DNA of 64,000 nt from Alphaproteobacteria bacterium (lineage in GTDB: Bacteria > Pseudomonadota > Alphaproteobacteria > CBDDJK01): NCBI GenBank assembly GCA_965229605.1, contig OZ245892.1, positions 72,102-136,101 of the forward strand. The letters run 5' to 3'. Both the position numbers and the translations under genes were made by a program. The notes under the pieces were generated by a model. The model was not told the origin of the DNA, ran no database searches, and was given only the letters and a program-made list of their open reading frames with translations. Shown here piece by piece: positions 15,672 to 62,002 of the stretch (position 1 is the stretch's first letter; each line of letters starts with the position of its first letter).

Positions 15672-15683
15672 GGGTCAGGACTC
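15672..15683. repeat. copy 1 of the 12-bp palindrome GGGTCAGGACCC (here GGGTCAGGACtC)
   Basis: Direct read. It lies 48 bp upstream of the methyltransferase start codon. Confidence 0.6.
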
Positions 15684-15862
15684 ATAAGATTCATCCATTC
15701 TGTTGGTCAAGAAAGGTAAAGATACAATGAAAACAAGCGAAAGCATAGCCTTAGCTACGGTGAGCTTGTTTGAAGCTGTAGATTTGCCTTTATTGACCAA
15801 CCTTGTAAAGGCGCGGCAAATTTTTGTATCTGAGCTTTCAAACCACTTGCGATTAGCTATGG

Positions 15863-16029
15863 CTAGTGCACCGTTTCACTGATTTTCCGTCTCTTGCGGC
15901 TAGTCCGTTTGAAAATCAGTGAAACATAAGGTGCACTAGCAAACTAACTTGCTAGTACTGCTTAATTTCAATAATTTGCTTATCGTAACTTGCGGACAGA
16001 TTCGGCAAATTATTGAAATGCAGTACTAG
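15863..16029. repeat. two adjacent long imperfect hairpins (stems of about 22 and 25 bp); MITE-like or structured-RNA candidate
   Basis: 15863..15939 pairs ctagTGCACCGtTTCACTGATTTTC with GAAAATCAGTGAAAcataaGGTGCActag. 15952..16029 pairs ctagTACTGCttaATTTCAATAATTTGC with GCAAATTATTGAAATGCAGTActag. Both loops contain CTTGCGG. A weaker third inverted repeat (CTGCGCG/CGCGCAG) lies at 16031..16075. Confidence 0.55.
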
Positions 16030-16089
16030 TCGCTGCGCGCTTTTCAAGCCCATCTATCACAAATTTGACACGCGCAGAATGAATTTTAT

Positions 16090-16101
16090 GGGTCCTGACC
16101 C
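16090..16101. repeat. copy 2 of the 12-bp palindrome (GGGTCCTGACCC, perfect)
   Basis: Direct read. It lies about 170 bp upstream of the ftsK start and is inverted relative to copy 1, so the two bracket the hairpin block. Confidence 0.6.
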
Positions 16102-16272
16102 TAGCTTTTAACTTACAAAACGTGCTGGATAGAGCAATGGTTTTCTTTCTTCGCTGCAAAAACCTTTTGAAATGTAAGTCGCCTGTTTTTTGGGTGGATT
16201 TGCTTTACGCCGATAGCGAATCGCGGCAGATAATCTGTTTATAGATCATTAGCGGCCCTTTATCGGGCTTTA

Positions 16273-18864
16273 TTGCCAAAAACAATGCCAACAGACTATT
16301 CTTCAGCCATAGAACCGTCGCCAAAAATTGGCCTAAATACGCGCGACCTGAATACACACGAATTACCCGGGCGTGGTCCGCAAAACGGAGAAGGCGCTTT
16401 GCTTCCGGCCGGAAGCCTTGCTTTTTTGCGCCGCTTTGCCATTCGACTGACGGCTGGAGCAGTCAGTCTGCTCGGGTTTCTTGTTCTTTTATCCCTCTGG
16501 AGCTACCATCCCGCCGATCCCTCCTTTAACACAGTGGGCCAGGTTGATGCGGCGGTGGGTAACTGGCTTGGATTACCCGGAAGCTATACCGCAGATATCT
16601 TCTTTCAGCTTTTTGGCTTTGGCAGCTTTGCTCCGGCACTGATCCTGTTTCTCTGGGGCGGGAAAATCGCTTTCGGGCTTTCGGTCTCGTACCCGCGCAC
16701 CCGGCTTTTATGCTTGCTGTTTGCTCTGGCGGTTCTTTGTGCAGTATTAAGCCTGATATCGGCATTTCTGGTCGATTCAACCCACTTTTATGTCAGTGCT
16801 GGCGGTGGTGTCGGGCGGGCCGGGGTCACCAACCTTGCAACGCTCCTGGCCCTTTTTCCGGGTCCGCCCCTGTTGCTCGACAATTACTGGCAAATGGGTT
16901 TCATGTCACTGCTGATGCTGCTGGCGGGGCTCTGTTTTTTGACGGCCGTCGGCCTCAGTTTTTCAGAATGGCGATTTATCCTGTCAAAATCGCGCCATGG
17001 GTTCAGTGCTCTTCTTTTATGGCGGCATAAATTGCGGCGGCTGCCTGGCCCTGATTTTCGCGCCCCAAACATAGTGACACCGGGGCATGATGATTTTTCT
17101 CTGGAAGAGACAGACGATCCCTTGTTCCCGGAATCCAGTGACCTTGAGCAACCAGATGCGCCAGATACATCACCAGATACATCAGAAGACTCTATTTTCT
17201 CAAGGCCCGCTCTAAAACCGTCCAAACGAAAAGTGAAAAAACCCCCGCCAGTCACAAAAGTGCAAGCCGATCAGGCTTCCTTGCCGTTGGACAGTGGCTA
17301 TAATTCGCCGGGCCTTGATCTTCTGACCCCGGCACCAGCTCAGGACGTGCCGCCAGCTGATCATGCTGTGATGCTGGAACAAAATGCCCGACAGCTGGAA
17401 GCTGTCTTGTCCGACTTCGGGGTGCGCGGTGAAATCGTTGAAATCAAGCCCGGCCCGGTGGTTACCCTTTATGCACTGGAACCCGCACCCGGGATTAAAT
17501 CCAGCCGGGTCATCGGGCTGGCAGATGATATTGCCCGGTCCATGGCGGCCCTTTCCGTGCGGATTGCGACTATTCCCGGCGTGAATGCCATCGGGATCGA
17601 ACTTCCAAACGCAACCCGCGAAACCGTGGTGCTGCGCGCCTTGATGGGATCAGGGGCCTATACAAAATCACGCGCCAGGCTGCCGCTTATTCTGGGAAAA
17701 GATATCGCAGGCGAACCCGAAATCGTCGATCTGGCAATTATGCCCCACCTCTTGATTGCAGGGACCACGGGCTCTGGTAAATCAGTTGGACTCAATGCCA
17801 TGATTCTTTCCTTGCTCTATCGGCTCACCCCCGACCAATGCCGCTTTATCATGGTCGATCCGAAAATGCTGGAACTCTCCGTCTATAACGATATTCCGCA
17901 TCTTCTCTCTCCGGTGGTGACCGATCCTAAAAAGGCGGTTGTTGCTCTCAAATGGGTGGTCCGCGAAATGGAAGACCGCTACCGCGCTATTTCACGCCTT
18001 GGCGGGGTGCGCAATATCGACGGCTATAACAAACGCCTCGCCGATGCACTGCAAAATGGCGAAACACTCACCCGCAAGATTGCCATCGGAATTGATGCCG
18101 AAACCGGCCAGCCAATCACTGAAGAACAGGAACTGCCGCTGGAGCCTATGCCCTATATCGTTGTTGTCGTCGATGAAATGGCCGACTTGATGCTGGTTGC
18201 TGGCAAGGATATCGAAGCCTCTATTCAACGGCTGGCCCAGATGGCGCGGGCCGCCGGGATTCATATCATCATGGCCACGCAAAGGCCCTCGGTCGATGTC
18301 ATTACCGGAACCATCAAGGCGAATTTCCCGACCCGGATCAGTTTCTCTGTTACCTCCAAATTCGACAGCCGAACCGTGCTTGGCGAACAGGGGGCCGAGC
18401 AACTGCTTGGCAAAGGCGATATGCTTTATATGGCAGGGGGCGGGCGGATTTCCCGCATCCACGGGCCTTTTGTCGATGATGCAGAAGTCGAAGCCGTCTG
18501 TGATTTCCTGCGCAGCCAAGGCACCCCGACCTATGTCAGTGCGGTAACCGATGCCGAAGAAATGTCCGGCGGGTTTGACACCGATGTTTCTGGCGCGGGC
18601 AACCTTGCCTTTCTTGAAGGAGGGGGCGGGGACGGGAATGGTGAAGCCTCTCTCTATGATCAGGCGGTTGCCATTGTCGCGCGTGAGGGCAAATGCTCGA
18701 CCTCTTTCCTGCAACGGCAGATGAAAATAGGCTATAACCGGGCGGCTGACCTAGTTGATCGTATGGAGAAAGAAGGCGTGGTCTCGGCTGCCAATCACGC
18801 CGGAAAACGCGAAGTGATGGTCGGCGATCATTCCACCGATTCGCTTGCCCGGAAATCTGCCTGA
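16273..18864 (+). CDS. ftsK: DNA translocase FtsK
   Basis: 863 aa with N-terminal TM helices, a Pro/acidic linker, a motor domain with Walker A GTTGSGKS and Walker B VVVDEMADLM, and a C-terminal gamma winged-helix (SLYDQAVAIVAREGKCSTSFLQRQMKIGYNRAADLVDRME). Confidence 0.95.
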   Translation: MPKTMPTDYSSAIEPSPKIGLNTRDLNTHELPGRGPQNGEGALLPAGSLAFLRRFAIRLTAGAVSLLGFLVLLSLWSYHPADPSFNTVGQVDAAVGNWLGLPGSYTADIFFQLFGFGSFAPALILFLWGGKIAFGLSVSYPRTRLLCLLFALAVLCAVLSLISAFLVDSTHFYVSAGGGVGRAGVTNLATLLALFPGPPLLLDNYWQMGFMSLLMLLAGLCFLTAVGLSFSEWRFILSKSRHGFSALLLWRHKLRRLPGPDFRAPNIVTPGHDDFSLEETDDPLFPESSDLEQPDAPDTSPDTSEDSIFSRPALKPSKRKVKKPPPVTKVQADQASLPLDSGYNSPGLDLLTPAPAQDVPPADHAVMLEQNARQLEAVLSDFGVRGEIVEIKPGPVVTLYALEPAPGIKSSRVIGLADDIARSMAALSVRIATIPGVNAIGIELPNATRETVVLRALMGSGAYTKSRARLPLILGKDIAGEPEIVDLAIMPHLLIAGTTGSGKSVGLNAMILSLLYRLTPDQCRFIMVDPKMLELSVYNDIPHLLSPVVTDPKKAVVALKWVVREMEDRYRAISRLGGVRNIDGYNKRLADALQNGETLTRKIAIGIDAETGQPITEEQELPLEPMPYIVVVVDEMADLMLVAGKDIEASIQRLAQMARAAGIHIIMATQRPSVDVITGTIKANFPTRISFSVTSKFDSRTVLGEQGAEQLLGKGDMLYMAGGGRISRIHGPFVDDAEVEAVCDFLRSQGTPTYVSAVTDAEEMSGGFDTDVSGAGNLAFLEGGGGDGNGEASLYDQAVAIVAREGKCSTSFLQRQMKIGYNRAADLVDRMEKEGVVSAANHAGKREVMVGDHSTDSLARKSA

Positions 18865-18888
18865 TCGCTCTTTCGGCATAAAAGCGGC

Positions 18889-19512
18889 GTGATGTCCAAA
18901 ATTGTTATTGCCACCCATAATGCGGGCAAGCGGCTTGAAATCGCCGCGCTGCTGGAGCCTTTAGGTATTGCTGTGATCGGCGCCGGAGACCTCAATTTAC
19001 CGGAACCGGAAGAGAACGGCGCAACCTTTATTGAAAATGCCCGGATAAAAGCACAATCCGCCACTGAACTTACCGGGCTTGCGGCCTTGTCCGATGATTC
19101 CGGGCTGGTGGTGCCGGGGCTGGATGGACAGCCGGGCATTTATTCAGCCAGATGGGCGGGCCCGGATCGGGACTTCAATCTGGCCATGACGAAAGTCAAT
19201 GAAGCCCTGATGGAACGTCATGCGGACCGCGCGGCATATATGATCTGTGTGCTTTGTTTAAGTGTGCCGGGGGAACAGGGCAGCTCGGCCCTTCGCTATC
19301 ATGATTTTGAAGGACGCATTGATGGCACCTTGGTATGGCCCCCGCGTGGAAACAAAGGCTTTGGCTATGATCCTATATTCAAGCCGGACAGCTATTCACT
19401 CACCTTTGGCGAAATGGACCCGGATGAAAAAGAGAAAATCAGCCATCGCAGCCGGGCTTTTGAACAATTACTGGCCGCTAAAGTTCTGTCTAATAGGCGC
19501 GGAGCTGGATAA
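18889..19512 (+). CDS. rdgB: non-canonical purine NTP pyrophosphatase (RdgB/HAM1 family)
   Basis: KIVIATHNAGKRLEIAALL...FIENARIKA...GFGYDPIF motifs. Confidence 0.85.
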   Translation: MMSKIVIATHNAGKRLEIAALLEPLGIAVIGAGDLNLPEPEENGATFIENARIKAQSATELTGLAALSDDSGLVVPGLDGQPGIYSARWAGPDRDFNLAMTKVNEALMERHADRAAYMICVLCLSVPGEQGSSALRYHDFEGRIDGTLVWPPRGNKGFGYDPIFKPDSYSLTFGEMDPDEKEKISHRSRAFEQLLAAKVLSNRRGAG

Positions 19513-20335
19513 TATCGGGTCCGCTCAGGTGGGCGAGAGGCAGAACGCGCCATTCAGAAGAAGCGGGGTCCTGATGAAGGTGACCAATCGGAATACCGGG
19601 CGGGAGTTGTCCTCCGTCGCCTGATGTGACCACCAGTTCGCCATTCTCCAAGGGATCATCGGGGTTAAAATAGCTGATTTTCGGGTGGGGCCGATTATCG
19701 CCTGCCACAATAAAGCGGACCCGCGAATAGGGGCTGTTCAATCCCTGCGTGCGGGCAGGAATACGGCTGTTTAAATCGGTGATGGAGAGCAATTTTGAGT
19801 GATTGGGCTCTACCTGGATTATCCGCCCGATCATCGCGTTGCCATCGACAGCAATCATCCCGGGGATAACGCCCTCGGACGTGCCTTTATCCAGCAAGAA
19901 CGAGCGCACAAACACCCCGCCAGAGCCAATAACACGGGCGGTGACAAAATGTTTTTCCTGAAAGCGCGGGAAGGCAAGTAACTCCCGCAGTTGTTTATTT
20001 TCTGCGCTTAGTTCCTTATTAACGTGATCAAGGCCGGACAATGTCGCCAGCTGGTTGCGCAGTTTTGCATTTTCGGCCCGAAGATCGACCAGGCTCTGGG
20101 CATTAGACCAGAGGTTTTCTCCTGCCACGAGGGGGCTGCGCAAGGTTTCCCACACCGGCGTGAGATAATAGGCCAAAGGCGCAATCGCCCGATCATGCCA
20201 GCCGGGACTGAATCGCGCAGCCAGAATCAAGGTGAGGCCCACGCCAAGCAACAGGGCAGCCCCTGCGCCATTGGATAGCTGGCGTCGGCTTCTGGCGCGC
20301 CCTTGCGGGGCTGGAGAGGTCAGGACGGTTGACAT
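19490..20335 (-). CDS. mreC: rod shape-determining protein MreC homologue (solitary)
   Basis: N-terminal TM helix, a coiled-coil (LRAENAKLRNQLATL...ENKQLRELL) and two beta-barrel repeats with VIGRIIQV...SKLLSITD and GELVVTSGDGGQLPPGIPIG. Confidence 0.7.
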   Translation of the reverse strand: MSTVLTSPAPQGRARSRRQLSNGAGAALLLGVGLTLILAARFSPGWHDRAIAPLAYYLTPVWETLRSPLVAGENLWSNAQSLVDLRAENAKLRNQLATLSGLDHVNKELSAENKQLRELLAFPRFQEKHFVTARVIGSGGVFVRSFLLDKGTSEGVIPGMIAVDGNAMIGRIIQVEPNHSKLLSITDLNSRIPARTQGLNSPYSRVRFIVAGDNRPHPKISYFNPDDPLENGELVVTSGDGGQLPPGIPIGHLHQDPASSEWRVLPLAHLSGPDIIQLRAY

Positions 20336-20389
20336 CTTTCTATCAATGGAGTCTTTGTATCAATGGGGTTGAGTCGATTCTTTACGCCT

Positions 20390-20875
20390 TTATAGTTGCG
20401 CCAGAATAGCCTCGGCTGAAGAGACTTTAAACCCGCCGCCTTCTTCAATAGCCAAGTGGCTCACGGTTCCATCTTCAACAATCATGCCAAAGCGCTGGCT
20501 GCGCATTCCAAGCCCGGCTGCCCGCAAGTCAAGCTCCAGACCAAGCGCATGCGTGAAAGCCCCGCTGCCATCAGCCAGCATATCGACAGAATCTCCAGCA
20601 CTCTGATCCTTTCCCCATGCATCCATCACAAAAACATCGTTCACCGCCAGACAGGCGATGGCATCAACCCCTTTTTCACGGATTTTCCCGGCCAGTCCTA
20701 TAAAACCCGGCAGATGCTTGACCGAACAGGTTGGCGTAAAGGCCCCGGGGACCGCAAAAAGCACAACCTTTCTTCCCTTGAAATAATCGTCCAGATTGAC
20801 ATCTTCAGGGCCATTGACTCCCATTTTCTTAAGCATATGTCCGGCAGGAATTTTCTCGCCTGTTGAAATTGTCAT
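20390..20875 (-). CDS. peroxiredoxin (Prx5-like subfamily)
   Basis: 161 aa with FAVPGAFTPTCS, where the peroxidatic Cys sits in the PGAFTPTC context. Confidence 0.85.
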   Translation of the reverse strand: MTISTGEKIPAGHMLKKMGVNGPEDVNLDDYFKGRKVVLFAVPGAFTPTCSVKHLPGFIGLAGKIREKGVDAIACLAVNDVFVMDAWGKDQSAGDSVDMLADGSGAFTHALGLELDLRAAGLGMRSQRFGMIVEDGTVSHLAIEEGGGFKVSSAEAILAQL

Positions 20876-21052
20876 CGCAACCTCTCTTTGGGTGTGTGCA
20901 AAATGGATGATGGATTAGATTCAATCCGGAAAGAGAAACATGTACTGAACCAACTATACTTTTCACTCTCTACACTTTTTATGGCCTGAATTATAGTGAA
21001 AAATCTCAGTTGAAAGATTTCTCTGAAATTTTATGATAGCTTTGGAGGAAAA

Positions 21053-21862
21053 TCAGGCCTTTAACTTGTAACCAGAGGCAATAAGCCGATAGCAGAGGAG
21101 AAGCAAAACCACATTAACTGCGACAAGCACGCTCATCCCGGTTAGCGGGTTGGCATCTGTGTAGCCCAGAAAGCCACCACGAAATCCGTCGATCATATAG
21201 AAGAACGGGTTGAAAAAGGCCATGGACAGGAAGGGTTCAGGCAGGCGGTCGATGGAATAAAACGTGCCGGACAGGAAGGCAAAAGGCGTAATGACAAAAT
21301 TGGTGATTGCGGCCATTTGGTCGAATTTGTCGGACCATATTCCGCCGAGGAGGCCAAAAAGCGCAAGCATTAACGAGCCGAGAAAGCCAAAAGCCAGGAT
21401 CATGGGGATATTTACGATGGGCAGGTCGATAAAGACCATGATTCCGACCAGGCTGGCTGCGCCGACCAGAATTCCGCGAATAACGCCGCCAAGGGCATAG
21501 GCGGCGACAAATTCGGCGGCACTGATTGGGGGCATGAGCACATCGACGATATTTCCCTGGACTTTGGAGATCACCAGCGAGCTTGAGGTATTGGCGAAGG
21601 CATTTTGCGCCATGGACATGATGATTAGTCCGGGGGCAACGAAGCTGACAAAAGGGACGCCTTTGATGGTTTCGACGGCCCGCCCGAGGGCCAGCGAGAA
21701 AATAGCGAGGAATAGCAAGGAGGTGACCATAGGCGCGCCGACGGTCTGAACATAGATGGACAGGAAACGCTGGACTTCCTTGCGCAGCAGGCTGGCGAAG
21801 CCGATCCAGTTTACAGCCCCAAGCTGGCGCGGCATAATAACAGGCGGAGTCGGATGTGTCAT
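21053..21862 (-). CDS. ABC-2 family transporter permease
   Basis: Six predicted TM helices downstream of an ABC ATPase. The start was moved to the internal Met (MTHPTPP) to avoid a 38-bp overlap. Confidence 0.7.
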   Translation of the reverse strand: MTHPTPPVIMPRQLGAVNWIGFASLLRKEVQRFLSIYVQTVGAPMVTSLLFLAIFSLALGRAVETIKGVPFVSFVAPGLIIMSMAQNAFANTSSSLVISKVQGNIVDVLMPPISAAEFVAAYALGGVIRGILVGAASLVGIMVFIDLPIVNIPMILAFGFLGSLMLALFGLLGGIWSDKFDQMAAITNFVITPFAFLSGTFYSIDRLPEPFLSMAFFNPFFYMIDGFRGGFLGYTDANPLTGMSVLVAVNVVLLLLCYRLIASGYKLKA

Positions 21863-21869
21863 GGTCTGG

Positions 21870-22880
21870 TCAGGAGTCCCGGGTGATTTGCAGGAAAATA
21901 TCCTCAAGGTCGGTTTCGACTGTGCTCAAGTCGCGAATAGGCAGGTCGCTGGCTCCCAGCGCGCCGACAATTTCTCCGGCCCGGGTTGTGCTTGGTTTAT
22001 AGGTGATCACCAGACGAGAGTTCCCGGTTTCGTCATCCTGCTCCAGCTGGGTGTTAAATTTGCGCAGAGCCTCCGGCACCTCTTCAAGGCGAGTTGACAG
22101 TTCAACCATCATACATTTTGCATCAAGCTGCGCCAGCAAGGTCCGTTTTGATTCATTTGCAACCAGATTTCCATGGTTGATAATGGCAATCCGGTCGCAA
22201 AGCTGCTCGGCCTCTTCCAGATAATGAGTGGTCAGCAGAACCGTTGTGCCTTGTGCATTCAACATGCGCACATTGTCCCAAAGCTGGCGGCGCAATTCAA
22301 TATCCACTCCCGCCGTTGGCTCATCCAGCACCAGCACCGGCGGGTTATGGACAAGTGCCTTGGCAATCAGCAAACGCCGCCGCATTCCGCCTGAAAGGGC
22401 GCGGGCATAGGCCTTGCGCTTGTCATGAAGCCCGACCAGCTTTAAAATTTCATCACTGCGGCGTTCAGACTTCGGGACTCCGTAAAGCCCGGCCTGCACT
22501 TCAAGCAATTCATAGGGCGTGAAAAAAGGATCAATATTCAATTCCTGCGGCACAACCCCGATGGCAGCACGGGCCTGACGCGGGTTGTCAATAATATCAT
22601 AGCCCCAGATTCTGGCCTGCCCCGATGATTTGACAACCAGCCCGGCCAGAATATTGATAAAGGTTGATTTCCCGGCTCCATTTGGTCCCAGCAGACCGAA
22701 AAGACTGCCGCGCGGGATTTTAAGGTCAATGGAATCAAGGGCTTTTACCGGCTTCTTTTCATCCGCCGCTTTGCCACGCGGCTTATAGGTTTTGGTCAGG
22801 CCTTCAACTTCAATCGCATAATCAGGGATATCCTGTTGTGAGGCTGTCTCTTTAGAAATAGAAGTGCCAAACATGATCAA
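21870..22880 (-). CDS. ABC transporter ATP-binding protein (ABC-2 exporter type)
   Basis: Walker A GPNGAGKST, signature LSGGMRRRL and Walker B LVLDEPTAG, with a C-terminal extension. Confidence 0.85.
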   Translation of the reverse strand: MIMFGTSISKETASQQDIPDYAIEVEGLTKTYKPRGKAADEKKPVKALDSIDLKIPRGSLFGLLGPNGAGKSTFINILAGLVVKSSGQARIWGYDIIDNPRQARAAIGVVPQELNIDPFFTPYELLEVQAGLYGVPKSERRSDEILKLVGLHDKRKAYARALSGGMRRRLLIAKALVHNPPVLVLDEPTAGVDIELRRQLWDNVRMLNAQGTTVLLTTHYLEEAEQLCDRIAIINHGNLVANESKRTLLAQLDAKCMMVELSTRLEEVPEALRKFNTQLEQDDETGNSRLVITYKPSTTRAGEIVGALGASDLPIRDLSTVETDLEDIFLQITRDS

Positions 22881-23410
22881 TTCTCTTTAAGGCGGGGCAG
22901 AAGCTCGGCAAAATTGCAGGGCCGATGGCGGCTGTCCAGCTGGTCTTTTAAAATATGTTCCCACCCATCGCGGCAAGCACTGGGTGATCCCGGCAGGCAA
23001 AAAATATAGGTGCCTGTGCAGACCCCAGCTGTTGCCCGGCTCTGGACCGTGGAACTGCCAATCTTTTGTGCGCTGATCACCCGAAAATATTCCCCAAACC
23101 CGGGGATTTCCTTTTCGGCAACCTGTTGCAGGGCCTCTGGTGTGACATCACGACCCGTAAGACCCGTGCCCCCGGTGCTTACAATGACATCAATATCTTC
23201 TTGTGCGCTCCAGCTTGCAAACAGATCAGCAATCTGGTCCCTGTCATCTTTGATCACGGCTCTTTTGGCAAGATGATGGCCTGCGGCTTCAAGATTGTCC
23301 TGCAAAACCTGCCCGGAAGTATCCTCAGCCAGAGAGCGGCTGTCTGAAACCGTCAGGACGGCAATATTTAACGGTTTGAAGACGCGCGTTGTATCAATCG
23401 GCATCAGCAC
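22877..23410 (-). CDS. moaB: molybdenum cofactor biosynthesis protein MoaB/MogA family
   Basis: IAVLTVSDSRS...DVIVSTGGTGLTGRDVTPEA...GSPSA motifs. Confidence 0.8.
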   Translation of the reverse strand: MLMPIDTTRVFKPLNIAVLTVSDSRSLAEDTSGQVLQDNLEAAGHHLAKRAVIKDDRDQIADLFASWSAQEDIDVIVSTGGTGLTGRDVTPEALQQVAEKEIPGFGEYFRVISAQKIGSSTVQSRATAGVCTGTYIFCLPGSPSACRDGWEHILKDQLDSRHRPCNFAELLPRLKEN

Positions 23411-23419
23411 ATGCAGAGG

Positions 23420-23644
23420 TTATTTCTGAAGCCCGAAATTGGCAAAACGCTTGTTAAAGCGGGCAAGCCGTCCGCCTTCAAGCACGCGACCATGACCGCC
23501 AACCCAGGCCGGGTGGCCGGATGGGTCAATATCCAGGCGCAGGACATCGCCAGCTTTCCCCCAGGTCGAGCGGGTTTTATAGCTTGATCCGTCTGTCAGA
23601 AGGACCGTAATTTCATGATAGTCGGGGTGGATATCAGCTTTCAT
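23420..23644 (-). CDS. rpmE: 50S ribosomal protein L31 (Cys-less form)
   Basis: [12 protein letters not shown]... is the canonical L31 N-terminus. It has no CxxC pairs, so it is not a zinc-ribbon form. Confidence 0.9.
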
Positions 23645-23770
23645 CAGTCTATTCCATCATAGAGTTTTATGCGCACAGAGTTTATTCAGCAGCGTTTTAT
23701 TTTGTCTGGCTACGCTATTTTATTTTTGTTTGGCTACGCCATATAGGATGATTGGGTAGCTTGCAAGCCG

Positions 23771-25808: not shown

Positions 25809-25840
25809 TTTGTCCTCTCTGGTTGGTCCTTTGAAAAATG

Positions 25841-26305: not shown

Positions 26306-26325
26306 CGCGTTTGATCCTTTTACTC

Positions 26326-26802: not shown

Positions 26803-26831
26803 CAGGCTTTAGCCTTTAAATGGAAGGCCGC

Positions 26832-27209: not shown

Positions 27210-27232
27210 TTTATCCTCGTTTACTTATTCTA

Positions 27233-28549: not shown

Positions 28550-28557
28550 ATCCAGGC

Positions 28558-29841: not shown

Positions 29842-29853
29842 GGGTCAGGACCC
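29842..29853. repeat. copy 3 of the 12-bp palindrome GGGTCAGGACCC (perfect)
   Basis: Direct read. It lies in the divergent promoter region between the cupin-4 gene and gltX. Confidence 0.6.
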
Positions 29854-29919
29854 TAATGATAGACATTTTGCCTCAAGTATCATAAAGCAGAGCCTGTTTT
29901 ATTTTGCCGAAGAGGTTTT

Positions 29920-34370: not shown

Positions 34371-36622
34371 GAAAAGCGGTTTGTCCGGGCAAAGCCGGAA
34401 GGTGGCAGGCGGCCGGTTTGACCGCGCTTGCCATACCAAGCCTCAAGCGCAGTTTCCGTGCGGGTGCGCTCTCCACTGCGCCAGCTTAATCCCTGCGCTT
34501 TTTGAAAGCCCCTGATATCGCTGACCCGGTCGCCTTTATATTTTTGCAAAAGCACCCCGCGCCCTCGCCCCAGCACCGGGACCTCACTTCTGGCAAAACA
34601 TAAAAGCTTGCGATTGCTGCCAATAACCGCGATGCTGTCGTCTTCCGGCTCTATCGTGGCAGTCGCACATAGACGGCTGGTTGCCGGAAGCGACATAATC
34701 TGCTTGCCGTTCTTGGTTTGGGCAACCAAATCGGCCTGATCGCTTAAAAACCCGCGCCCGTCATCAGAGGCCAGCAATAACTGCTTCTTTTCATCAAAAA
34801 CATTCAGCGCAACAATGCTGTCCTGGCTGTCCAGTGTGATCATCAGCCGGACAGGTTCGCCCATCCCGCGCCCGCCCGGCAGCTTATCAGCCCCCAGCGT
34901 ATAGACCCGGCCATTGCTGGCAACGATCAATAGTTTGTCAGTGGTATGGGCATGAAGGCAAAAGCGGGCTTCATCGCCATCTTTATATTTAATCTGGGCG
35001 CATTGCTCGGCATCCAGATGACCGCGCACAGAGCGAATCCAGTCTTTCTTTGACAGAAAAATTGTCACCGGTTCGCGCTCGATCATCGTGTCAGGCACAA
35101 ATTCAACCATATTGTCAGGCGCAACAACCTGCGTGCGCCGTTCCGATAAAGCCGGATGTTTTTCATAATCCGCTTTCAGGCTTTTGACCTCCCCGGCCAG
35201 AGCTTTCCAGCGTGAAGCTTCATTGGTCAGCAACCCATCAATCTCTTGGCGTTCCTTGGTCAGGGTCTCTTTTTCCTGTTTAAGGGCCATTTCCTCCAGC
35301 CGCCGCAAGGCCCGCAGCCGTAAATTCAAAATCGCCTCGGCCTGAATATCACTTAATGAAAAACGCTGCATCAGCGCGGCTTTTGGCGAGTCCTCATCGC
35401 GGATAATCCGGATCACCTGATCAAGATCAAGAAAAGCAATCAAATAGCCGTCCAGCAGATGCAACCGCTGCTCAATGGCGGCTTTGCGGTGATTGAGCCT
35501 GCGGATCAGAACCTGATGGCGGTGATCCAGCCATTGCTGCAAGGCCGCTTTCAGCCCCAGCAAGCGCGGGATACGGCCGTCATCGGTCAGCATATTCATA
35601 TTCAAACTATAGCGGGTTTCCAGCTCGGTCTGCCGGAACAGGCTGGCCATCAGCATATCAGGATCAACCGTGCGGGCCCGGGGAACCAGCACCAGGCGCA
35701 AATCCTCAGCCGATTCATCGCGGACATCGCCAAGCAAAGGATTGCTTTTGCCCAGAGCCAGATCAGCCAGCCGTTCAACCAGACGGCTTTTGGTGACCTG
35801 ATAGGGAATCTGGTCAATAATAATTTCAAACCCGCCGCCTTTTTGCCGGTCAATCTGATAATTGGCCCGCAGGCGGAAGCTGCCGCGCCCGCTTTCATAG
35901 GCCGCCGCAATCGTTTCCTGATCCTCTGCCAGAATGCCACCTGTCGGGAAGTCGGGGCCTTGAATATGGTCCATAAGCTCCAGGGTTGTGCAGCCCGGCT
36001 TCTTGATCAAAAGCAATAAGGCATCACAGAGTTCCAGAATATTATGCGGCGGAATATTGGTTGCCAGCCCGACCGCAATACCGCTGGCACCGTTGGCTAA
36101 CAGCTGCGGAAAGGCAGCTGGAAGCACCGTTGGCTCATCGCTTTCATTGTCATAGGTCGGGCGAAAATCAACTGAATCATCATCCAGACCCTGCAAAAGA
36201 TAATCGGCACTAAATGTCATCCGGGCTTCGGTATAGCGCATGGCGGCAGCATTATCGCCATCAATCGTGCCGAAATTCCCTTGCCCGTCAATCAAGGGAT
36301 AGCGCGATGAAAAATCCTGCGCCAGCCGCACCAGCGCATCATAAATGGCCTGATCACCGTGCGGGTGCAGCTTTCCCATAACATCGCCAACGATGCGGGC
36401 GCATTTCTTAAAGCCGCTTTTCGGGTCCAGCTTCAACTCCCGCATCGCCACCAACAATCGGCGATGGACGGGCTTTAATCCATCGCGGGCATCCGGCAAC
36501 GAGCGCGAAGTGATGGTTGACAAGGCATAGGCCAGATAGCGTTCGCCCAGAGCCTTTGCCAGGTCCTGTTCCCGAATATTATTTTCATCGGCATTGTCTA
36601 TTGCATCAAATCTATCAGACAT
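34367..36622 (-). CDS. parC: DNA topoisomerase IV subunit A
   Basis: GyrA/ParC N-terminal breakage-reunion domain (DGLKPVHRR...IVGDVMGKLHPHGD...AAMRYTE). At 751 aa with a short C-terminal domain and no GyrA box, it is ParC rather than GyrA. Confidence 0.85.
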   Translation of the reverse strand: MSDRFDAIDNADENNIREQDLAKALGERYLAYALSTITSRSLPDARDGLKPVHRRLLVAMRELKLDPKSGFKKCARIVGDVMGKLHPHGDQAIYDALVRLAQDFSSRYPLIDGQGNFGTIDGDNAAAMRYTEARMTFSADYLLQGLDDDSVDFRPTYDNESDEPTVLPAAFPQLLANGASGIAVGLATNIPPHNILELCDALLLLIKKPGCTTLELMDHIQGPDFPTGGILAEDQETIAAAYESGRGSFRLRANYQIDRQKGGGFEIIIDQIPYQVTKSRLVERLADLALGKSNPLLGDVRDESAEDLRLVLVPRARTVDPDMLMASLFRQTELETRYSLNMNMLTDDGRIPRLLGLKAALQQWLDHRHQVLIRRLNHRKAAIEQRLHLLDGYLIAFLDLDQVIRIIRDEDSPKAALMQRFSLSDIQAEAILNLRLRALRRLEEMALKQEKETLTKERQEIDGLLTNEASRWKALAGEVKSLKADYEKHPALSERRTQVVAPDNMVEFVPDTMIEREPVTIFLSKKDWIRSVRGHLDAEQCAQIKYKDGDEARFCLHAHTTDKLLIVASNGRVYTLGADKLPGGRGMGEPVRLMITLDSQDSIVALNVFDEKKQLLLASDDGRGFLSDQADLVAQTKNGKQIMSLPATSRLCATATIEPEDDSIAVIGSNRKLLCFARSEVPVLGRGRGVLLQKYKGDRVSDIRGFQKAQGLSWRSGERTRTETALEAWYGKRGQTGRLPPSGFARTNRFS

Positions 36623-36690: not shown

Positions 36691-36750
36691 CCCATTTGAT
36701 TGTTGCCCATTTGATTGTTGCCCATTTGATTGTTGCCCATTTGATTGTTG
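36691..36750. repeat. perfect tandem array of 4 x 15 bp (CCCATTTGATTGTTG) in the parC / kinase divergent intergenic region
   Basis: Direct read, with no mismatches between copies. It ends in ttgacagg, which is -35-like. Confidence 0.9.
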
Positions 36751-36858: not shown

Positions 36859-37533
36859 ATGTCTTCATCTCGATTGCAGAATAATCAGCGGCAAAACCTG
36901 CACCTGCAAAATATAAAATTAGCTATTGAGTCGGCTATTGAAAAGACTCCGCGGGTTTTGCTGGCTATCTCTGGCCCGCCAGCAGCTGGCAAATCGACGC
37001 TGGCAGAAGAACTGGCTCTTTCCTATGGAGAAAAAGCGGCTTTCGTGCCGATGGACGGATTTCATCTGGATAATGATATTTTAACCGCCAGAGGAATGTT
37101 GGCCCGAAAAGGATCACCTGAAACCTTTGACGGGAAAGGGTTTGTCCATCTGGTTGAGCGGATTGCCGCTGGAGAATCAGTCTATGCGCCGCGCTTTGAC
37201 CGGGCAGCTGATCTGTCTCGGGCAGGTGCCATAGAGATTGACCATCACTCTTTGATTATTTTTGAAGGGAATTATCTCTTTTCTGCCCTTGCGCCGTGGG
37301 ACAGGCTGATCGCTTACTGGACGCTTTCAATCTGGCTTGATGTGTCTTTGGAGACGATTGAGAAGCGATGCATAGACCGCTGGCTGGCGCAGGGCCTCTC
37401 GCTTGCTGCTGCGCGTACGCGGGCCAGAGAGAATGATCTTGCTAATGCCCGCCTGGTGATAGAAAGCCAACAGGCTGCGACGGGCCCTTTCTTCCGTCTT
37501 TCCTCTGAAGATTCATCCCCTGTAGAAAAGTAG
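36859..37533 (+). CDS. P-loop nucleoside/nucleotide kinase family protein (uridine kinase/PRK-like)
   Basis: Walker A ISGPPAAGKST and a kinase-like DGFH motif, 224 aa. Confidence 0.65.
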   Translation: MSSSRLQNNQRQNLHLQNIKLAIESAIEKTPRVLLAISGPPAAGKSTLAEELALSYGEKAAFVPMDGFHLDNDILTARGMLARKGSPETFDGKGFVHLVERIAAGESVYAPRFDRAADLSRAGAIEIDHHSLIIFEGNYLFSALAPWDRLIAYWTLSIWLDVSLETIEKRCIDRWLAQGLSLAAARTRARENDLANARLVIESQQAATGPFFRLSSEDSSPVEK

Positions 37534-39487: not shown

Positions 39488-40876
39488 TTAGGTGCCAACA
39501 ATCATCTGTTCATCGCCATAGGGAAATAGCGTCAGGTCCTCCGCCCCGTCCGGCGTAATAATGACAAGGTCCCCTTCCCGGTAAAGTCCGGCCCCTGGCT
39601 GGTCGGCAGGGACAAGAAGAGTCGGTGAAAAGAAGATCACCATCCCTTCTTCAAGCTGGCCTGGATTGGTTGCTGTCAGACGAAAACGCTTGTCGGGGGC
39701 ATTTTGATCAAAATAATAGGGCGGGTCAATCCCGCCTCCGGCACCCCCAAGCCCGAAGCCGCCACCATAATCGGGCAAGGCAAGATGCTGCATTCCGTGT
39801 TTATCCAGAAAATCATCAAGTTTTTTGACCAGAGTCTTGATCGGGAGTCCGGGCTTCAGCAGCGTCAATCCATAGGCCAGCACATCGCAGGTTGTGCGCC
39901 AGTAAGGCAGGTTTTCGGGCTGCTGCCAGGTGCAAAAAAGGGTGCGGTTGAGCGGGACTTCATAGCCGCCCTGGCGCACGATCACACTTAGCGAGATTAA
40001 ATCTCCGGCCTGAATATCCTGATTGGTGGCAGGGCCGGAGGCTGTGTCACAATCAATCCCTGAAAGCACGCGCACTTGTGATTCGCCGTGTTCAGCAAAG
40101 GGGAAATGGGCGTAAAGTTCCTCAGAAAGTTTGGCTTCTCCGGTCACGCAAAGCTGCTGACCGGTGCAGCCGGGATGAGTGGCCTGCATGATTGTGCGGG
40201 CCACGGTGCGCCCGATCAGGGCAAGTTTGCGCAGGTGGGCTTGTTCCTCGGGGCTTTTGATCAGGGTGAGTGCCGTGACTGGTGCGGTGATATTTGTCCA
40301 TAACATTTGCGGGGCAGGGGGTGTAAACAGGGCTTGCAAACGGGCAAAGTCAGCAAGATTCCATTCTTCCTCTATCAGGCCAAGGTGGACAGGAGACTCT
40401 GCGGGTTTGTCCATGCTGGCGCAAAGATGAGAAATAGCCTGATAAATGGTCTGGATCAGGGCGTGCGGTTCGCTGGTTTTGAACGCCTGTGGCTCGTTGG
40501 TTTTGAACGCCTGTGGCTCGCTGGTTTTGAACGACAGGATATTTCCGGCACTGCGCCGCCAGGGCTGATTTCCCTCGCTTTCAGGAACCAGGAGCAGGCT
40601 GCTGGTTGCGGTTGCCACCAGCGCCATGCGTGGAGAGCCACAAGCTCCCGGATAGCCCGCATAATAGGCAATCAGCGGTTTTGATAAAAAGACAACGGCA
40701 TCAAGCGGCTGGTTCTTTTTGCCTTTCGCAGGTTCGGGCGCGTTCAAGCGTGAGAACAGGGCGGATAATCTGGCAAATACCAGATCGGCTGAAAAGATTT
40801 GCCAGTCCTTTTCACCGTCTCCTGTTGCGTGTGGGCCTATTTCGCGATCAAATATACTTTCGGTCGGATCGGTCAT
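39488..40876 (-). CDS. M24-family (pita-bread fold) peptidase homologue, probably non-catalytic
   Basis: C-terminal half aligns to the Xaa-Pro peptidase/creatinase fold (GDLISLSVIV...GGYEVPLNRT, LEEGMVIFFSP, GLYREGDLVII). The canonical metal ligands appear substituted: GY-VP instead of GY-SD, and no HxxGH motif. It has an in-frame 24-bp x 3 tandem repeat at 40478..40549. Confidence 0.55.
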   Translation of the reverse strand: MTDPTESIFDREIGPHATGDGEKDWQIFSADLVFARLSALFSRLNAPEPAKGKKNQPLDAVVFLSKPLIAYYAGYPGACGSPRMALVATATSSLLLVPESEGNQPWRRSAGNILSFKTSEPQAFKTNEPQAFKTSEPHALIQTIYQAISHLCASMDKPAESPVHLGLIEEEWNLADFARLQALFTPPAPQMLWTNITAPVTALTLIKSPEEQAHLRKLALIGRTVARTIMQATHPGCTGQQLCVTGEAKLSEELYAHFPFAEHGESQVRVLSGIDCDTASGPATNQDIQAGDLISLSVIVRQGGYEVPLNRTLFCTWQQPENLPYWRTTCDVLAYGLTLLKPGLPIKTLVKKLDDFLDKHGMQHLALPDYGGGFGLGGAGGGIDPPYYFDQNAPDKRFRLTATNPGQLEEGMVIFFSPTLLVPADQPGAGLYREGDLVIITPDGAEDLTLFPYGDEQMIVGT

Positions 40877-47072: not shown

Positions 47073-47098
47073 CTAAAAATAACGAAACAGCAAAAACC

Positions 47099-47731: not shown

Positions 47732-47909
47732 CCCCGATTCTTCCCGCGCAAATATTCTATATTTGCCGATATTTAACTATGTTACATTTTGTCATATGTC
47801 TTGATTTGATCGACAGTTCTTTTTTTCCTATCTACCCTTGAAAGGCCTAGCCTTCTGGCTACATGATGCAGGTCTCGTAACAAAAAGACGGTAATAATAA
47901 ATTAAAATA

Positions 47910-48992: not shown

Positions 48993-49029
48993 GGGTCCTG
49001 AGCCTGTTATATAACGCGGGAATTTTCCG

Positions 49030-59342: not shown

Positions 59343-59666
59343 TTAAGCCGCTTTGGAGGGGCCAAGAGCCTCCTGCAATTCGCCGGATTCAAACATCTCG
59401 CGGATAATATCACAGCCGCCAACAAATTTTCCGTCAATATAAAGCTGCGGAATCGTCGGCCAGTCGGAATATTCCTTGATGCCCTGGCGAATATCCTCGT
59501 CTGCCAGCACGTCTACCCCTTTGAAAGGCTGGTCAAGATGATTGAGAATCTGCACAACAGTCGAAGAAAAACCACATTGAGGAAAGACTGGCGTGCCTTT
59601 CATAAAAAGCGTCACCGGGTTTTCTTTAATAATTTCATCAATCTGGGCTTTGGTCTCGGGGGTCAT
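59343..59666 (-). CDS. grxD: Grx4-family monothiol glutaredoxin
   Basis: [18 protein letters not shown] carries the CGFS active site. Also [19 protein letters not shown]. Confidence 0.9.
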
Positions 59667-59727
59667 ATCAATCTCCTTAAATATAGAATGTTCTTAACTG
59701 CAGAATGTTCTTAACTACAGGCGCTGG

Positions 59728-60639
59728 TCAACCAAGAATCGGGGAAGTCTGATTGGCCGGAATAGCCTCCAAAATGAAACCATGCAGCTTTTCAAGGGCG
59801 CGGGCCTCAATCTGGCGAACGCGCTCCCGGCTGACCCGTAGCTCCTCACTCAGGTTCTCAAGGGTGCGGCCCGGCTCAACAAGACGACGCTGCTCCACAA
59901 CATAGCGCTCCCGGTCATTCAGCCGATCAAGGGCACCAGCCAATAAAGTATGATGCATCTCAATCTCTTGCTTCTCAGCCGCTTGCTGCTCAGGTGTGGC
60001 CTGATCATCTTCAAGATTGTCGATCCATTCGCTGACATCGCCGCCATCCTGCCCGCTGATTGGCGCGTTCAACGATACATCCCCACCAGACAACCGTCCG
60101 TTCATCGAGGCCACATCTTTCTCATCAACCTGCAAGTCAGAAGCAATGCGCTTCAGGTTTTCCGGCGACAGCTCTCCGTCCTCATAGGCCGCAAGACGGG
60201 CTTTGGCACGCCGCAAGTTGAAAAATAATTTCTTTTGGGCCGAGGTGGTTCCAATCTTGACCAGCGACCAACTGCGCAGGATAAACTCCTGAATCGAGGC
60301 GCGGATCCACCACATCGCATAGGTTGCAAGACGAAAGCCCCGTTCGGGTTCAAATTTCTTGACGGCCTGCATCATGCCGATATTGCCTTCTGCAATCAGT
60401 TCGGAAACCGGCAACCCATAGCCCCGGTAGCCCATGGCAATTTTGGCCACCAGCCGCAGGTGAGAGGTGACAAGCGCATGGGCTGCATTGGTGTCGTTAT
60501 GTTCTTGCCAGCGTTTTGCCAGCATATATTCTTCCTCGGCGGTGAGCATCGGGAACTTGCGAATATCCGCAAGATAGCGGCTTAGCCCTGCATCATCTTG
60601 TAAGGCTGGCACCGGAGGCGTTGAACGAGCAGACATCAA
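59728..60639 (-). CDS. rpoH: RNA polymerase sigma-32 factor RpoH
   Basis: Sigma-70 regions 2 and 4 plus the RpoH box (QKKLFFNLRRAKARL). Confidence 0.9.
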   Translation of the reverse strand: MMSARSTPPVPALQDDAGLSRYLADIRKFPMLTAEEEYMLAKRWQEHNDTNAAHALVTSHLRLVAKIAMGYRGYGLPVSELIAEGNIGMMQAVKKFEPERGFRLATYAMWWIRASIQEFILRSWSLVKIGTTSAQKKLFFNLRRAKARLAAYEDGELSPENLKRIASDLQVDEKDVASMNGRLSGGDVSLNAPISGQDGGDVSEWIDNLEDDQATPEQQAAEKQEIEMHHTLLAGALDRLNDRERYVVEQRRLVEPGRTLENLSEELRVSRERVRQIEARALEKLHGFILEAIPANQTSPILG

Positions 60640-60711
60640 ATATTGTCCTTTTTTTGCGGTATAGTTTTTTATTTTCTCGGAATGGTTTTTAGACCTGTCA
60701 GGATCATTTTT

Positions 60712-60740
60712 ATATAGGACTATTTTAGTCCTCTTTCAAG
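60712..60740 (-). promoter_or_regulatory. putative sigma-32-type promoter of rpoH (CTTGAAA-N14-TCCTATAT) with a 15-bp palindrome in the spacer
   Basis: On the minus strand, cttgaaa at 60740..60734 matches the sigma-32 -35 consensus. tcctatat, 14 nt downstream, partly matches CCCCATNT. The palindrome GGACTATTTTAGTCC (60717..60731) overlaps the spacer and the -10 element. Confidence 0.4.
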
Positions 60741-60789
60741 CGCTTTCTTTTTTTCTTGTGGAATTATCTTGTAAAATTATAGGCGCAAA

Positions 60790-61977
60790 TCATATCGGGC
60801 GCACAAGATTGGGGATCAGAGGCGCATCCCCGGACTCAGGGAAAAGCGTTGCCAGATCAGAGGGCGAAAATTTCCATATATATTGGGCGATTGTTTTATA
60901 AAGGCTGCGGCTGTCAACAGAAGGCGGCAGCACGGCCCGGCCTTCAAGTCCTGGCCATTGTCCGATGGTTTGCCTGCCCTGGACCTGTCCACCAGCAAGA
61001 AAGGCCAGTCCCCCCAGCCCATGGTCGGTGCCGCCGGTTTGATTGATCGGGATAGAGCGGCCAAATTCACTTGTTGCGACGATAAGCGTATCGTCCCAGA
61101 TTGAGGAAAGATTTTTGCGGACAATGGCAAAAGCATGAGCCACGGCAGCCATGCGCCTGGCCAGAATCCCGCTTTCAGCCCCTTGCCTGAAATGGGTGTC
61201 AAAGCCGCGTGTCGCCAGAACCGCGACGCGTAAAGACCGCTGCAAGGCGAATTGACGGGTGACCTCTTCCATCATGACCGGCAAGGCCTGTGCATCCAGA
61301 TCAAATCTTGAATCGGTATCGTGCTGAGGGGTCAGCCGATAAAATTCATCATTTTCGATGATTCTCAATTCCTCCAGAGCAGCGGCAAGAGCCTGGTCAG
61401 TTGCAAAACTGTTGCCCGCGATATGATCAAGCGAAATAAAACGTTGCGCAGCCTGTCCACTGTCGGTTTGCCGAACCTGCTCCAGCTGGCGCAGATCAGG
61501 CTGAAGCGGGGTAAAGCCGCCAGCAGCACTCAGGCAGCGGCCAAGCCAGCCGGAGGGGTTGATCGCCATCTGTTGGGCCGAGGCCTGACCACTGTTCATC
61601 ATACGGCGGGCTTCTTCATGGTCGCTTCCACGATAGGGGCTGGCGATGCTGGGGATAAAGGCCAGGTCCCCTTGTTCCCATAAGGGCCAAAAAACCTTCT
61701 CGACAGCCGGGTGCAGCGCAAATAAATTATCCAATGGCACCCCTGCAGGATGTCCACTTGAGTCAACCATGGCCAGGTCGCGCCGGGCGTTGCGATAGGC
61801 GGGGTCTCCCCACGGAATAAGCATCGAAAGCCCGTCAAGCCCGCCTTGCAAAAGGATCAGGATTAAATATTTTGACGGTCTGATATCTTGCGCGCGCGCG
61901 TCAGACGATAGCGGTGGCGGCAGCCCGCTTGCTAACGCGAACGCCCCGCCTCCGGCCAGGAAAAGGCGGCGATTCAT
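60790..61977 (-). CDS. DUF1501 domain-containing protein (Tat-signal, sulfatase-like fold)
   Basis: Twin-arginine signal MNRRLFLAGGGAFALA, used as the start (the ORF is open to 62022). Conserved DUF1501 motifs include GGTDHG near the C-terminus. Confidence 0.7.
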   Translation of the reverse strand: MNRRLFLAGGGAFALASGLPPPLSSDARAQDIRPSKYLILILLQGGLDGLSMLIPWGDPAYRNARRDLAMVDSSGHPAGVPLDNLFALHPAVEKVFWPLWEQGDLAFIPSIASPYRGSDHEEARRMMNSGQASAQQMAINPSGWLGRCLSAAGGFTPLQPDLRQLEQVRQTDSGQAAQRFISLDHIAGNSFATDQALAAALEELRIIENDEFYRLTPQHDTDSRFDLDAQALPVMMEEVTRQFALQRSLRVAVLATRGFDTHFRQGAESGILARRMAAVAHAFAIVRKNLSSIWDDTLIVATSEFGRSIPINQTGGTDHGLGGLAFLAGGQVQGRQTIGQWPGLEGRAVLPPSVDSRSLYKTIAQYIWKFSPSDLATLFPESGDAPLIPNLVRPI

Positions 61978-61990
61978 CTGATAATTTTTA

Positions 61991-62002
61991 GGGTCAGGAC
62001 CT
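61991..62002. repeat. copy 4 of the 12-bp palindrome (GGGTCAGGACCt)
   Basis: Direct read. It lies about 15 bp upstream of the proposed DUF1501 start codon. Confidence 0.55.

Follow-up and report, generated by a model that had tools for sequence, protein, structure and literature searches.

The Correia elements of Neisseria are bacterial MITEs that duplicate TA. In the nearly precise excision of Tn10/IS10, a deletion arises between short direct repeats inside the inverted ends and is independent of the transposase, while REPs, to our knowledge, are neither bounded by target duplications nor the ends of DDE insertion sequences. Elements of the IS427 group within the IS5 family, including those of Paracoccus, are 830-865 bp long and mostly have 2-bp direct repeats (PMC3281130, Table 2). 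The stretch of alphaproteobacterial DNA analysed here (the window, 64,000 nucleotides) carries several copies of the 12-mer GGGTCAGGACCC, which is very probably the outermost part of the IS427-group terminal inverted repeat, and the window would accordingly hold one MITE together with solitary remnants of collapsed elements. This kind of element, IS427-group insertion sequence and MITE debris, is already known, and the present set of copies is a further example of it.

Compared with these systems, the window shows both shared and distinguishing features. Its copies resemble REP/BIME elements as short, imperfect, intergenic palindromes in many copies, but they carry target duplications and match the ends of a DDE insertion sequence, and no RAYT association was seen in a non-exhaustive look. 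Similarly, the solitary copies recall the remnants of Tn10/IS10 in being short palindromic leftovers of element termini with the target duplication at the old site; however, they measure 12-13 bp rather than about 50 bp, and here the event is deduced from population polymorphism. The MITE has in common with the Correia elements its small size, terminal inverted repeats, TA duplication, intergenic position, multiple copies, long hairpin and lack of a transposase, yet it belongs to a different sequence family, its parent insertion-sequence family can be identified, and it is a nest into which two further hairpin units have been inserted at CTAG. The closest likeness is to the IS427 group (ISPam4, ISRhsp4 and the Paracoccus elements of PMC3281130), which has the same TA/GGGTCAGGACCC...GAGTCCTGACCC/TA termini and 2-bp TA duplication; in contrast to these elements of about 840 bp with two transposase frames, the window has only a 430-bp non-autonomous derivative and remnants of 12-13 bp.

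A first-pass annotation had listed four copies of the 12-mer, at 15672 (plus strand, one mismatch), 16090 (minus strand, exact), 29842 (plus strand, exact) and 61991 (plus strand, one mismatch), and all of them were found. Its list was incomplete, as two further one-mismatch matches lie at 10803 and 48993. The claim that the copies are far above chance was borne out: six matches with at most one mismatch occur in the window against 0.21 expected, none of 100 shuffles reached six, and the extended motif TAGGGTCAGGACCCATAA has four matches against 0.02 expected. On the other hand, the supposed palindrome is only a near-palindrome, in which arms of 5 bp each, GGGTC and GACCC, enclose an asymmetric AG centre; owing to this asymmetry, the orientation of each copy is defined. 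The described TA flanks hold for three of the four copies but not for 29842, which has GA on one side. Moreover, the four copies are not four separate sites, since a single element, bounded by a 26-nt inverted repeat, has 15672 and 16090 at its tips. The features are as follows.

9466-9485, minus strand: another decayed remnant, TAGGGCCAG, at the stop codon of purA
10803-10814, plus strand: one-mismatch match at the HisZ C-terminus (QRVLTL, then stop), no TA flanks
15670-15671, no strand: left copy of the TA target-site duplication (from the sequence)
15672-16101, plus strand: composite MITE of 430 bp with no transposase (from the inverted repeat, the TA duplication and related MITEs elsewhere)
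15672-15694, plus strand: left terminal inverted repeat GGGTCAGGACTCATAAGATTCAT, copy 1 of the first list (from the motif match and inverted repeat)
15859-15934, no strand: nested hairpin unit B in the MITE, bounded by CTAG
15949-16034, no strand: nested hairpin unit C in the MITE, bounded by CTAG (from the inverted repeat)
16079-16101, minus strand: right terminal inverted repeat GGGTCAGGACCCATAAAATTCAT, copy 2 of the first list
16102-16103, no strand: right copy of the TA target-site duplication (from the sequence)
29842-29853, plus strand: solitary 12-bp remnant with GA/TA flanks between the divergent JmjC-cupin gene and gltX, copy 3
48993-49004, minus strand: decayed remnant directly next to the TAG stop of lpxC, where the lpxC and DUF3179 genes converge with their 3' ends
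61991-62003, plus strand: solitary 13-bp remnant GGGTCAGGACCTA between the 3HCDH stop and the DUF1501 start, copy 4

The assignment to the IS427 group is carried by a scan of a genome collection, in which the 12-mer was found at more than 114 loci, nearly all of them in Alphaproteobacteria, including full elements of about 840 bp with a transposase, MITEs of 48-290 bp and solitary ends. Among 116 scan matches, an IS427-type transposase lies just inside the repeat in 37, whereas 15 are MITEs and 29 are solitary; the base preceding TA is a pyrimidine in 104 of the 116, with 75 C and 29 T. The full elements, L034 and L045 among them, are 780-852 bp long, flanked by TA, and encode OrfA (DUF4096) and OrfB (DDE_Tnp_1); they contain a slippery site, A AAA GGG. 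Their terminal inverted repeats match those of the window, as do the ends of annotated ISPam4-family and ISRhsp4-family copies. In addition, a 2-bp TA target-site duplication, in a target of the YTAR type, was found at the window MITE and at the remnants, and the empty alleles described below have a single TA. Within the same genus, no autonomous element with an identical repeat turned up; locus L200 carries an IS427-group element with the diverged end GGGCGTAGACC. Matches in Clostridia, Persephonella and similar organisms were rejected as family members, being a coding coincidence (GSGPI inside a gene that we read as carB). A literature search for the 12-mer itself found no paper.

The MITE is bounded by an inverted repeat of 26 nt with 92% complementarity (15669-15694 and 16079-16104), and its reconstructed target, TTC-TA-GCT, contains CTAG. 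Thus it combines the inverted repeats of a known insertion sequence with a target duplication and a small size, and it shows neither the two-frame DUF4096 and DDE_Tnp_1 coding region nor the length of about 800-870 bp of an autonomous IS427-group element. A tblastn search of the window with the L034 transposase found no similarity (best E = 0.038), and the sole ORF inside the MITE, of 51 aa, had no Pfam match. The element folds as a single strand with a z-score of -12.7. In L198, a MITE (5241-5511) located with an AraC-type gene on one side and a hydrolase gene on the other is 97% identical to it over 196 bp, and it also aligns to MITEs in other genomes (L080, L103 and L015); at all four loci, the gene context is different or there is no other nucleotide similarity to the window, i.e., the related copies are at non-orthologous loci. 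Judged from these alignments, the 430-bp MITE is an IS427-group-type MITE of about 273 bp with a nested insert of 157 bp. Unit B, which folds into a long hairpin, is missing from the otherwise 97%-identical MITE of L198, and no copy of it was found elsewhere in the compared sequences apart from L199. This is also the only compared locus that covers the region upstream of ftsK, where its arrangement is identical to that of the window, and an empty site for the window MITE was not found.

The solitary copies vary from strain to strain. The 29842 remnant is also present in L204 and L206, and at the equivalent position L205 has TA GGTTCCTGACCC TA, in which the centre is inverted and both flanks are TA. 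At the 48993 site, L224 has GGGTCTTGACCC with TA flanks, which is nearer to the consensus than the window copy; the site is missing in four strains (L219, L220, L223 and L225, three of which are also represented as L209, L210 and L213), and the remaining related strains show various deletions. The flanks in the window are imperfect at 29842 (GA) and at 48993. At the purA stop codon, L198 has TA GGGTCAGGACCC and L200-L202 have GGGTCAGGACCA, while the internal TCAGGA of this copy is missing in the window and in L001. In total, there are about 10 distinct sites of the 12-mer in about 75 kb of the genome of this genus, and other copies lie at stop codons or between convergent genes.

Pairs of filled and empty alleles were obtained for three sites, and in each the filled allele holds element termini together with both copies of the target duplication. 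The 61991 remnant has TA at 61989-61990 and again at 62004-62005, and it differs from the empty allele by a clean insertion of 15 bp, namely 13 bp plus the duplicated TA; across 13 syntenic genomes of the same genus, seven are filled and six are empty with a single TA, and linked SNPs point to a single origin of this insertion. At pstB/phoU, some related strains have a TA+12+TA remnant and others, including the window, an empty TA. Similarly, upstream of ybaB, a TA+13+TA remnant occurs in some related strains and an empty TA in others. No full-length progenitor was found at the 61991 site in the 13 genomes compared, nor a longer element at the other remnant sites in the strains compared there. 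SNPs lie directly beside the pstB/phoU insertion. Being frequent and polymorphic among co-occurring strains, the remnants are good strain markers, and they may also bear on the way in which elements of the IS427 group exit a site.

As for the origin of the remnants, IS427-group elements take TA as their target, mostly inside YTAR or CTAG, and duplicate it. Each site may first have received a complete insertion sequence or MITE, which would later have collapsed through a deletion between short direct repeats located in its ends. The near-palindromic tip places GGGTC and GACCC in direct orientation at either end of the element; a deletion between these would leave exactly TA+12 bp+TA, whereas one with the inner TAA of the repeat and the TA duplication plus a flanking A as its endpoints would leave TA+13 bp+TA. 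Such a collapse would amount to "nearly precise excision", favoured by the hairpin of the inverted ends, and the logic of the end sequences and the two remnant sizes make it the likeliest route. A different and rather unlikely account, which departs from the preferred one solely in how the remnant arose, is that the transposase made the 12-13-bp copies as excision footprints: staggered cut-and-paste cuts would leave the donor with about 12 nt from each end, and the near-self-complementary overhangs would anneal at 10 of 12 positions and be repaired to TA+12 bp+TA with the centre either way. This would account for the retention of both TA copies, for a product that is exactly the self-complementary tip, and for a centre that reads AG in the window but CT at the same site in L205, the outcome expected when a 2-nt mismatch in the middle is repaired. 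However, the 13-bp class with its extra A is more simply explained by microhomology deletion, no report of such footprints was found for bacterial IS5-family elements, and the literature on solitary ends or nearly precise excision in the IS5 family yielded nothing directly relevant. If true, a footprint origin would give bacteria an equivalent of the transposon footprints of eukaryotes and display the cleavage geometry of the IS427 group. The density of TA-flanked 12-13-bp palindromes, about one site in every 7 kb of the sampled region, could also be taken to mean that they form a distinct and abundant ultra-short class derived from insertion sequences, produced by transposase-dependent excision and end annealing and perhaps co-opted in part, in which case some copies may bind the transposase DNA-binding domain or act as expression-altering hairpins; we consider this broader proposal improbable. 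It is very unlikely that the units are still-mobile "nano-MITEs" inserted directly by the transposase. Although the insertions are clean (TA+12/13 bp+TA) and no longer intermediate occurs in the 13 genomes, 12-13 bp would be too short for two transposase-binding ends or for synaptic bending, judging from DDE transpososomes, and the single origin suggested for the 61991 insertion by its linked SNPs gives no sign of recurrent activity of this type.

The first-pass annotation had offered two readings of another kind, a dimeric regulator site defining a small regulon and a REP-like repeat. That the 12-mer is a transcription-factor operator, with a regulon of the methyltransferase, ftsK, gltX/cupin and DUF1501 genes, is highly improbable. 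The motif is indeed near-palindromic and intergenic, its four listed copies lie 14-185 bp from start codons, and a transposase DNA-binding domain presumably recognises it, which would make it a protein-binding sequence of some kind. Nevertheless, close strains differ in having or lacking the copies, which come with a TA duplication, the same sequence forms insertion-sequence ends in many unrelated contexts, a single MITE supplies two of the four "sites" with its ends, and the neighbouring genes are functionally unrelated. Conservation in related genomes, which the annotation had suggested checking, was not seen at orthologous promoters: the 12-mer was not found upstream of gltX in 80 relatives, which came from a metagenome scan with GltX and are distant only (55-63% identity). 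Nor are the copies always promoter-proximal, as had been stated, since 10803 overlaps the hisZ end and its stop codon, and 48993 and others lie at stop codons or between convergent genes; "intergenic" holds. [quoted passage not shown] The copies would look promoter-proximal solely because insertions survive in intergenic DNA, where TA-containing stop codons and AT-rich spacers may be preferred or tolerated targets; TA plus the first G of the element would rebuild a TAG stop, and the remnants often lie on stop codons rebuilt in this way. The second reading was right about a short genomic repeat but not about its type. Spread of a REP-like extragenic palindrome by a RAYT (Y1-type) transposase is extremely improbable: it would fit a short, intergenic, palindromic repeat with this number of sites, but the sequence is the tip of the IS427-group repeat flanked by duplicated TA, and no clustered REP-pair (BIME-like) arrangement was seen. 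With the preferred reading as insertion-sequence ends, a false regulon is removed, as a statistically overwhelming palindromic motif near start codons proves to be mobile-element debris; for motif-based regulon prediction this is a warning that solitary insertion-sequence ends of 12 bp can pass for operators.

Other functions were also considered. An intrinsic terminator was rejected, as the 5-pair stem has a 2-nt centre and no T-run and a terminator scan found none at the copies. An outward promoter from the repeat was likewise rejected: the sole promoter-like match overlapping a copy is directed inwards, into the MITE, the number of such matches is no higher than expected by chance, and a promoter scan at the copies gave nothing specific. 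An Rfam search of the whole window returned no family, a tRNA and tmRNA scan of the window found none, and exact-protein look-ups of the DUF1501 395-aa form, the JmjC protein and the 161-aa ORF near ftsK gave no match.

Whether all four listed copies lie outside coding regions, as originally described, depends at 61991 on the start codon. With the ATG at 61977, the protein begins MNRRLFLAGGG, in our reading a Tat-like start; the remnant then lies 14 nt upstream of this codon, and the description stands. Gene calls in related genomes start DUF1501 at the equivalent of the upstream ATG at 62022 (410-aa calls), and with that start the remnant is inside the ORF. The match at 10803 is doubtful as a family member, being coding, without TA flanks and kept in six of seven related loci compared, with L198 lacking the 12 bp there; with 0.21 matches expected, one chance match at this stringency is plausible.

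The 12-mer GGGTCAGGACCC occurs in the window as exact copies starting at 29842 and 16090 and as single-mismatch copies at 15672 and 61991, in agreement with the first-pass annotation, and two additional one-mismatch copies are found at 10803 and 48993.

Copies of the 12-mer in the window (start coordinate, strand, location)
10803, plus strand, overlaps the hisZ stop codon
15672, plus strand, 48 bp upstream of a minus-strand methyltransferase gene
16090, minus strand, ftsK start about 184 bp downstream
29842, plus strand, between the divergent JmjC-cupin gene and gltX
48993, minus strand, between the 3' ends of the convergent lpxC and DUF3179 genes
61991, plus strand, between a 3-hydroxyacyl-CoA dehydrogenase stop codon and the DUF1501 gene

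When one mismatch is tolerated, GGGTCAGGACCC has six matches in the window against 0.21 expected, a number reached in 0 of 100 shuffles, and the longer form TAGGGTCAGGACCCATAA has four against 0.02 expected; since these counts are far above expectation and shuffles, the repeat is real. It was described as a palindrome, which is imperfect: the arms GGGTC and GACCC flank an asymmetric AG, so that every copy has an orientation. The 10803 copy codes for the HisZ C-terminus, has no TA flanks and is kept in 6 of 7 related loci compared; it is probably a chance match.

Of the four copies first noted, 15672 and 16090 belong together as the two termini of a single element, as inverted-repeat arms reveal. 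The repeat finder places these arms (inverted repeat I14) at 15669-15694 and 16079-16104, 26 nt each, 92% complementary and 384 nt apart; from outside to inside, both read TAGGGTCAGGAC(T/C)CATAA(G/A)ATTCAT, and TA stands at either boundary (tTC-TA/GGG...CCC/TA-Gct, slashes marking the element ends). No transposase similarity was found within the window, and the sole internal ORF of the element (51 aa) has no Pfam match. Relatives of 270-290 bp at other loci have identical ends and internal sequence in common with it, and in the comparison locus L199 an identical element stands at the corresponding position.

Related miniature elements (MITEs) at other loci
L198, 97% identity over 196 bp, flanked by an AraC-type gene and a hydrolase gene
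L080, from a Rhodospirillales metagenome-assembled genome
L103 and L015, related MITEs

Compared to the L198 copy, the window MITE has an extra 157-bp insert at CTAG, which is made up of two hairpin units.

Hairpin units in the 157-bp insert
15859-15934, CTAG-bounded, long perfect stem, missing from the L198 MITE
15949-16034, CTAG-bounded, long perfect stem, missing from the L198 MITE

Across the sequence examined, no further copies of these units were found save in L199, and they may be further tiny MITEs nested in the first.

The low-GC island at 12130-16270 between ybaB and ftsK (42-48% versus about 54%) is a strain-variable hotspot with the MITE at its ftsK edge. Its content is wholly different among six related strains, some of which have fragments annotated rve_3, DDE_Tnp_1, DUF4096 or IS1595 at this position. 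Another inverted repeat, I7 (14746-14778 and 16158-16190, 33 nt, 79% complementary), encloses the methyltransferase gene and the MITE.

An exact scan for TAGGGTCAGGACCYATAA, with one genome per species, matched at least 114 DNA stretches, nearly all from Alphaproteobacteria; Rhodobacterales, Hyphomicrobiales, Sphingomonadales, Rhodospirillales and Caulobacterales are among the orders of the matches listed. For many listed matches, a true contig end is no more than about 150 bp away, a trait of mobile repeats, and in many matched loci an ORF starts about 75 nt after the motif.

Classes of the 116 matches listed
IS427-type transposase just inside, 37
MITE of 48-290 bp without transposase, 15
Partner end more than 750 bp away, no IS427-type transposase hit, 2
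Solitary, 29
Too near the end of the sequence examined, 33

Several solitary matches are a coding coincidence in a Firmicutes gene taken to be carB. In the comparison locus L034, an element of about 840 bp (929-1771) is bounded as cTA/GGGTCAGGACCC...GAGTCCTGACTC/TAg and encodes OrfA with DUF4096 and OrfB with DDE_Tnp_1, which overlap at the slippery run A AAA GGG GGG. Similar plasmid DNA carries the annotations 'IS5-like element ISPam4 family transposase' and 'ISRhsp4 family transposase', and these copies share the ends and TA flanks. The IS5/IS427-group elements listed by Dziewit et al. 2012 (PMC3281130, Table 2) measure 830-865 bp, have inverted repeats of 13-21 bp and mostly show 2-bp direct repeats. 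Among the 116 matches listed, TA is preceded by C in 75 and by T in 29, which fits insertion at TA inside YTAR. The window holds a new IS5/IS427-group MITE plus several solitary-end remnants, which is ordinary biology. A related strain (L200) has IS427-group insertion sequences at 8300-9000 and 5016-5384 with the diverged end TA/GGGCGTAGACCTATAAAG; the genus thus does contain this group, though with ends that do not match the MITE and remnant repeat exactly.

The solitary copies were compared among many same-genus syntenic contigs found via exact window proteins, all from two ENA assemblies. Site 61991 is filled in seven genomes including the window (...TTTT-TA-GGGTCAGGACC(C/T)A-TA-AACAG...) and empty in six (...TTTT-TA-AACAA...), a clean 15-bp difference of 13 bp plus the second TA, and linked SNPs point to a single origin of the filled allele. 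The pstB/phoU junction is empty in the window (4136-4154), L199 and L203 (GGC-TA-AAAAG) and filled in L198, L200-L202 and L001 (GGT-TA-GGGTCAGGACCC-TA-GAAAG); L001 and the window are 96% identical overall. Between the window and L001 (8140-8170), the bases adjoining TA also differ on both sides (C/T, A/G). Upstream of ybaB, L202 has TA, 13 bp and TA, and L201 has one TA. Site 29842 is common to the window, L204 and L206, and L205 has TA-GGTTCCTGACCC-TA at this position, with the centre flipped. Site 48993 is missing in four strains (L219, L220, L223 and L225, three also represented by L209, L210 and L213); in the remaining strains it is closer to consensus in some and variously deleted. At the purA stop, the 12-mer is complete in L198, while the window retains only TAGGGCCAG (9466-9485), and an additional polymorphic site lies at about 58050-58071 in the window, between convergent methyltransferase and permease genes.

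In total, about 10 distinct sites were found over roughly 75 kb of genus genome, several of them on stop codons or gene 3' ends. The regulon-operator reading of the first-pass annotation, in which every copy was promoter-proximal, is contradicted by these 3'-end locations and by the empty alleles, and also by the functionally unrelated neighbour genes and by the motif's absence ahead of gltX in 80 relatives. Judged from the gene table, intergenic DNA accounts for about 9% of L196, so the restriction of sites to intergenic DNA is strong, and we infer that it reflects tolerance plus target choice, not promoter function. The REP/RAYT reading does not fit the target duplication and the match to DDE insertion-sequence ends, and nothing came of Rfam, tRNA and terminator readings.

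The remnants are composed solely of the repeat tip and are accompanied by TA duplication, as transposition would leave. Most likely, a full insertion sequence or MITE first inserted at the site and collapsed later. Because the tip is near-palindromic, GGGTC and GACCC stand in direct orientation at both element ends; deletion between either pair would give TA, 12 bp and TA with the centre in either orientation, and deletion between the repeat-internal TAA (CCC-A-TAA) and the TA duplication plus the next A would give TA, 13 bp and TA. At both 13-bp sites the flank starts with A. Nearly precise excision is known for Tn10, and the proposed collapse is similar. Alternatively, the transposase itself may have left a footprint by cutting in a staggered fashion, after which the self-complementary tips would anneal; this would yield the same 12-bp product and account for the flipped orientation of the centre in L205. 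At remnant sites, full elements were found in none of the genomes compared. The residual interest is small and lies in the regular 12-13-bp form and the abundance of the remnants; their strain-level polymorphism could serve for strain markers and give a handle on how IS427-group elements leave a site.

The DUF1501 start beside site 61991 is ambiguous (61977-62022). Relatives' gene calls take the upstream ATG (410 aa), with the remnant in frame as IGPDP, and in empty alleles the protein has 405 aa. The true start seems to be the downstream ATG at 61977, from which the protein begins with the Tat-like signal MNRRLFLAGGG. In the JmjC-cupin/gltX intergenic region, immediately next to the remnant at 29842, the palindrome ATGATA-N16-TATCAT (29856-29883) has a promoter-like score on both strands, is conserved in L204-L206 and may represent a true promoter or operator. 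Four perfect tandem 15-bp units of CCCATTTGATTGTTG (family D3, 36691-36750) lie in the gap between a minus-strand gene starting at 36622 and an ORF starting at 36859. The tandem repeats D9 and D10 (40461-40533, three 24-bp units; 1934-2014, three 27-bp units) each lie within a long ORF and are probably coding repeats.
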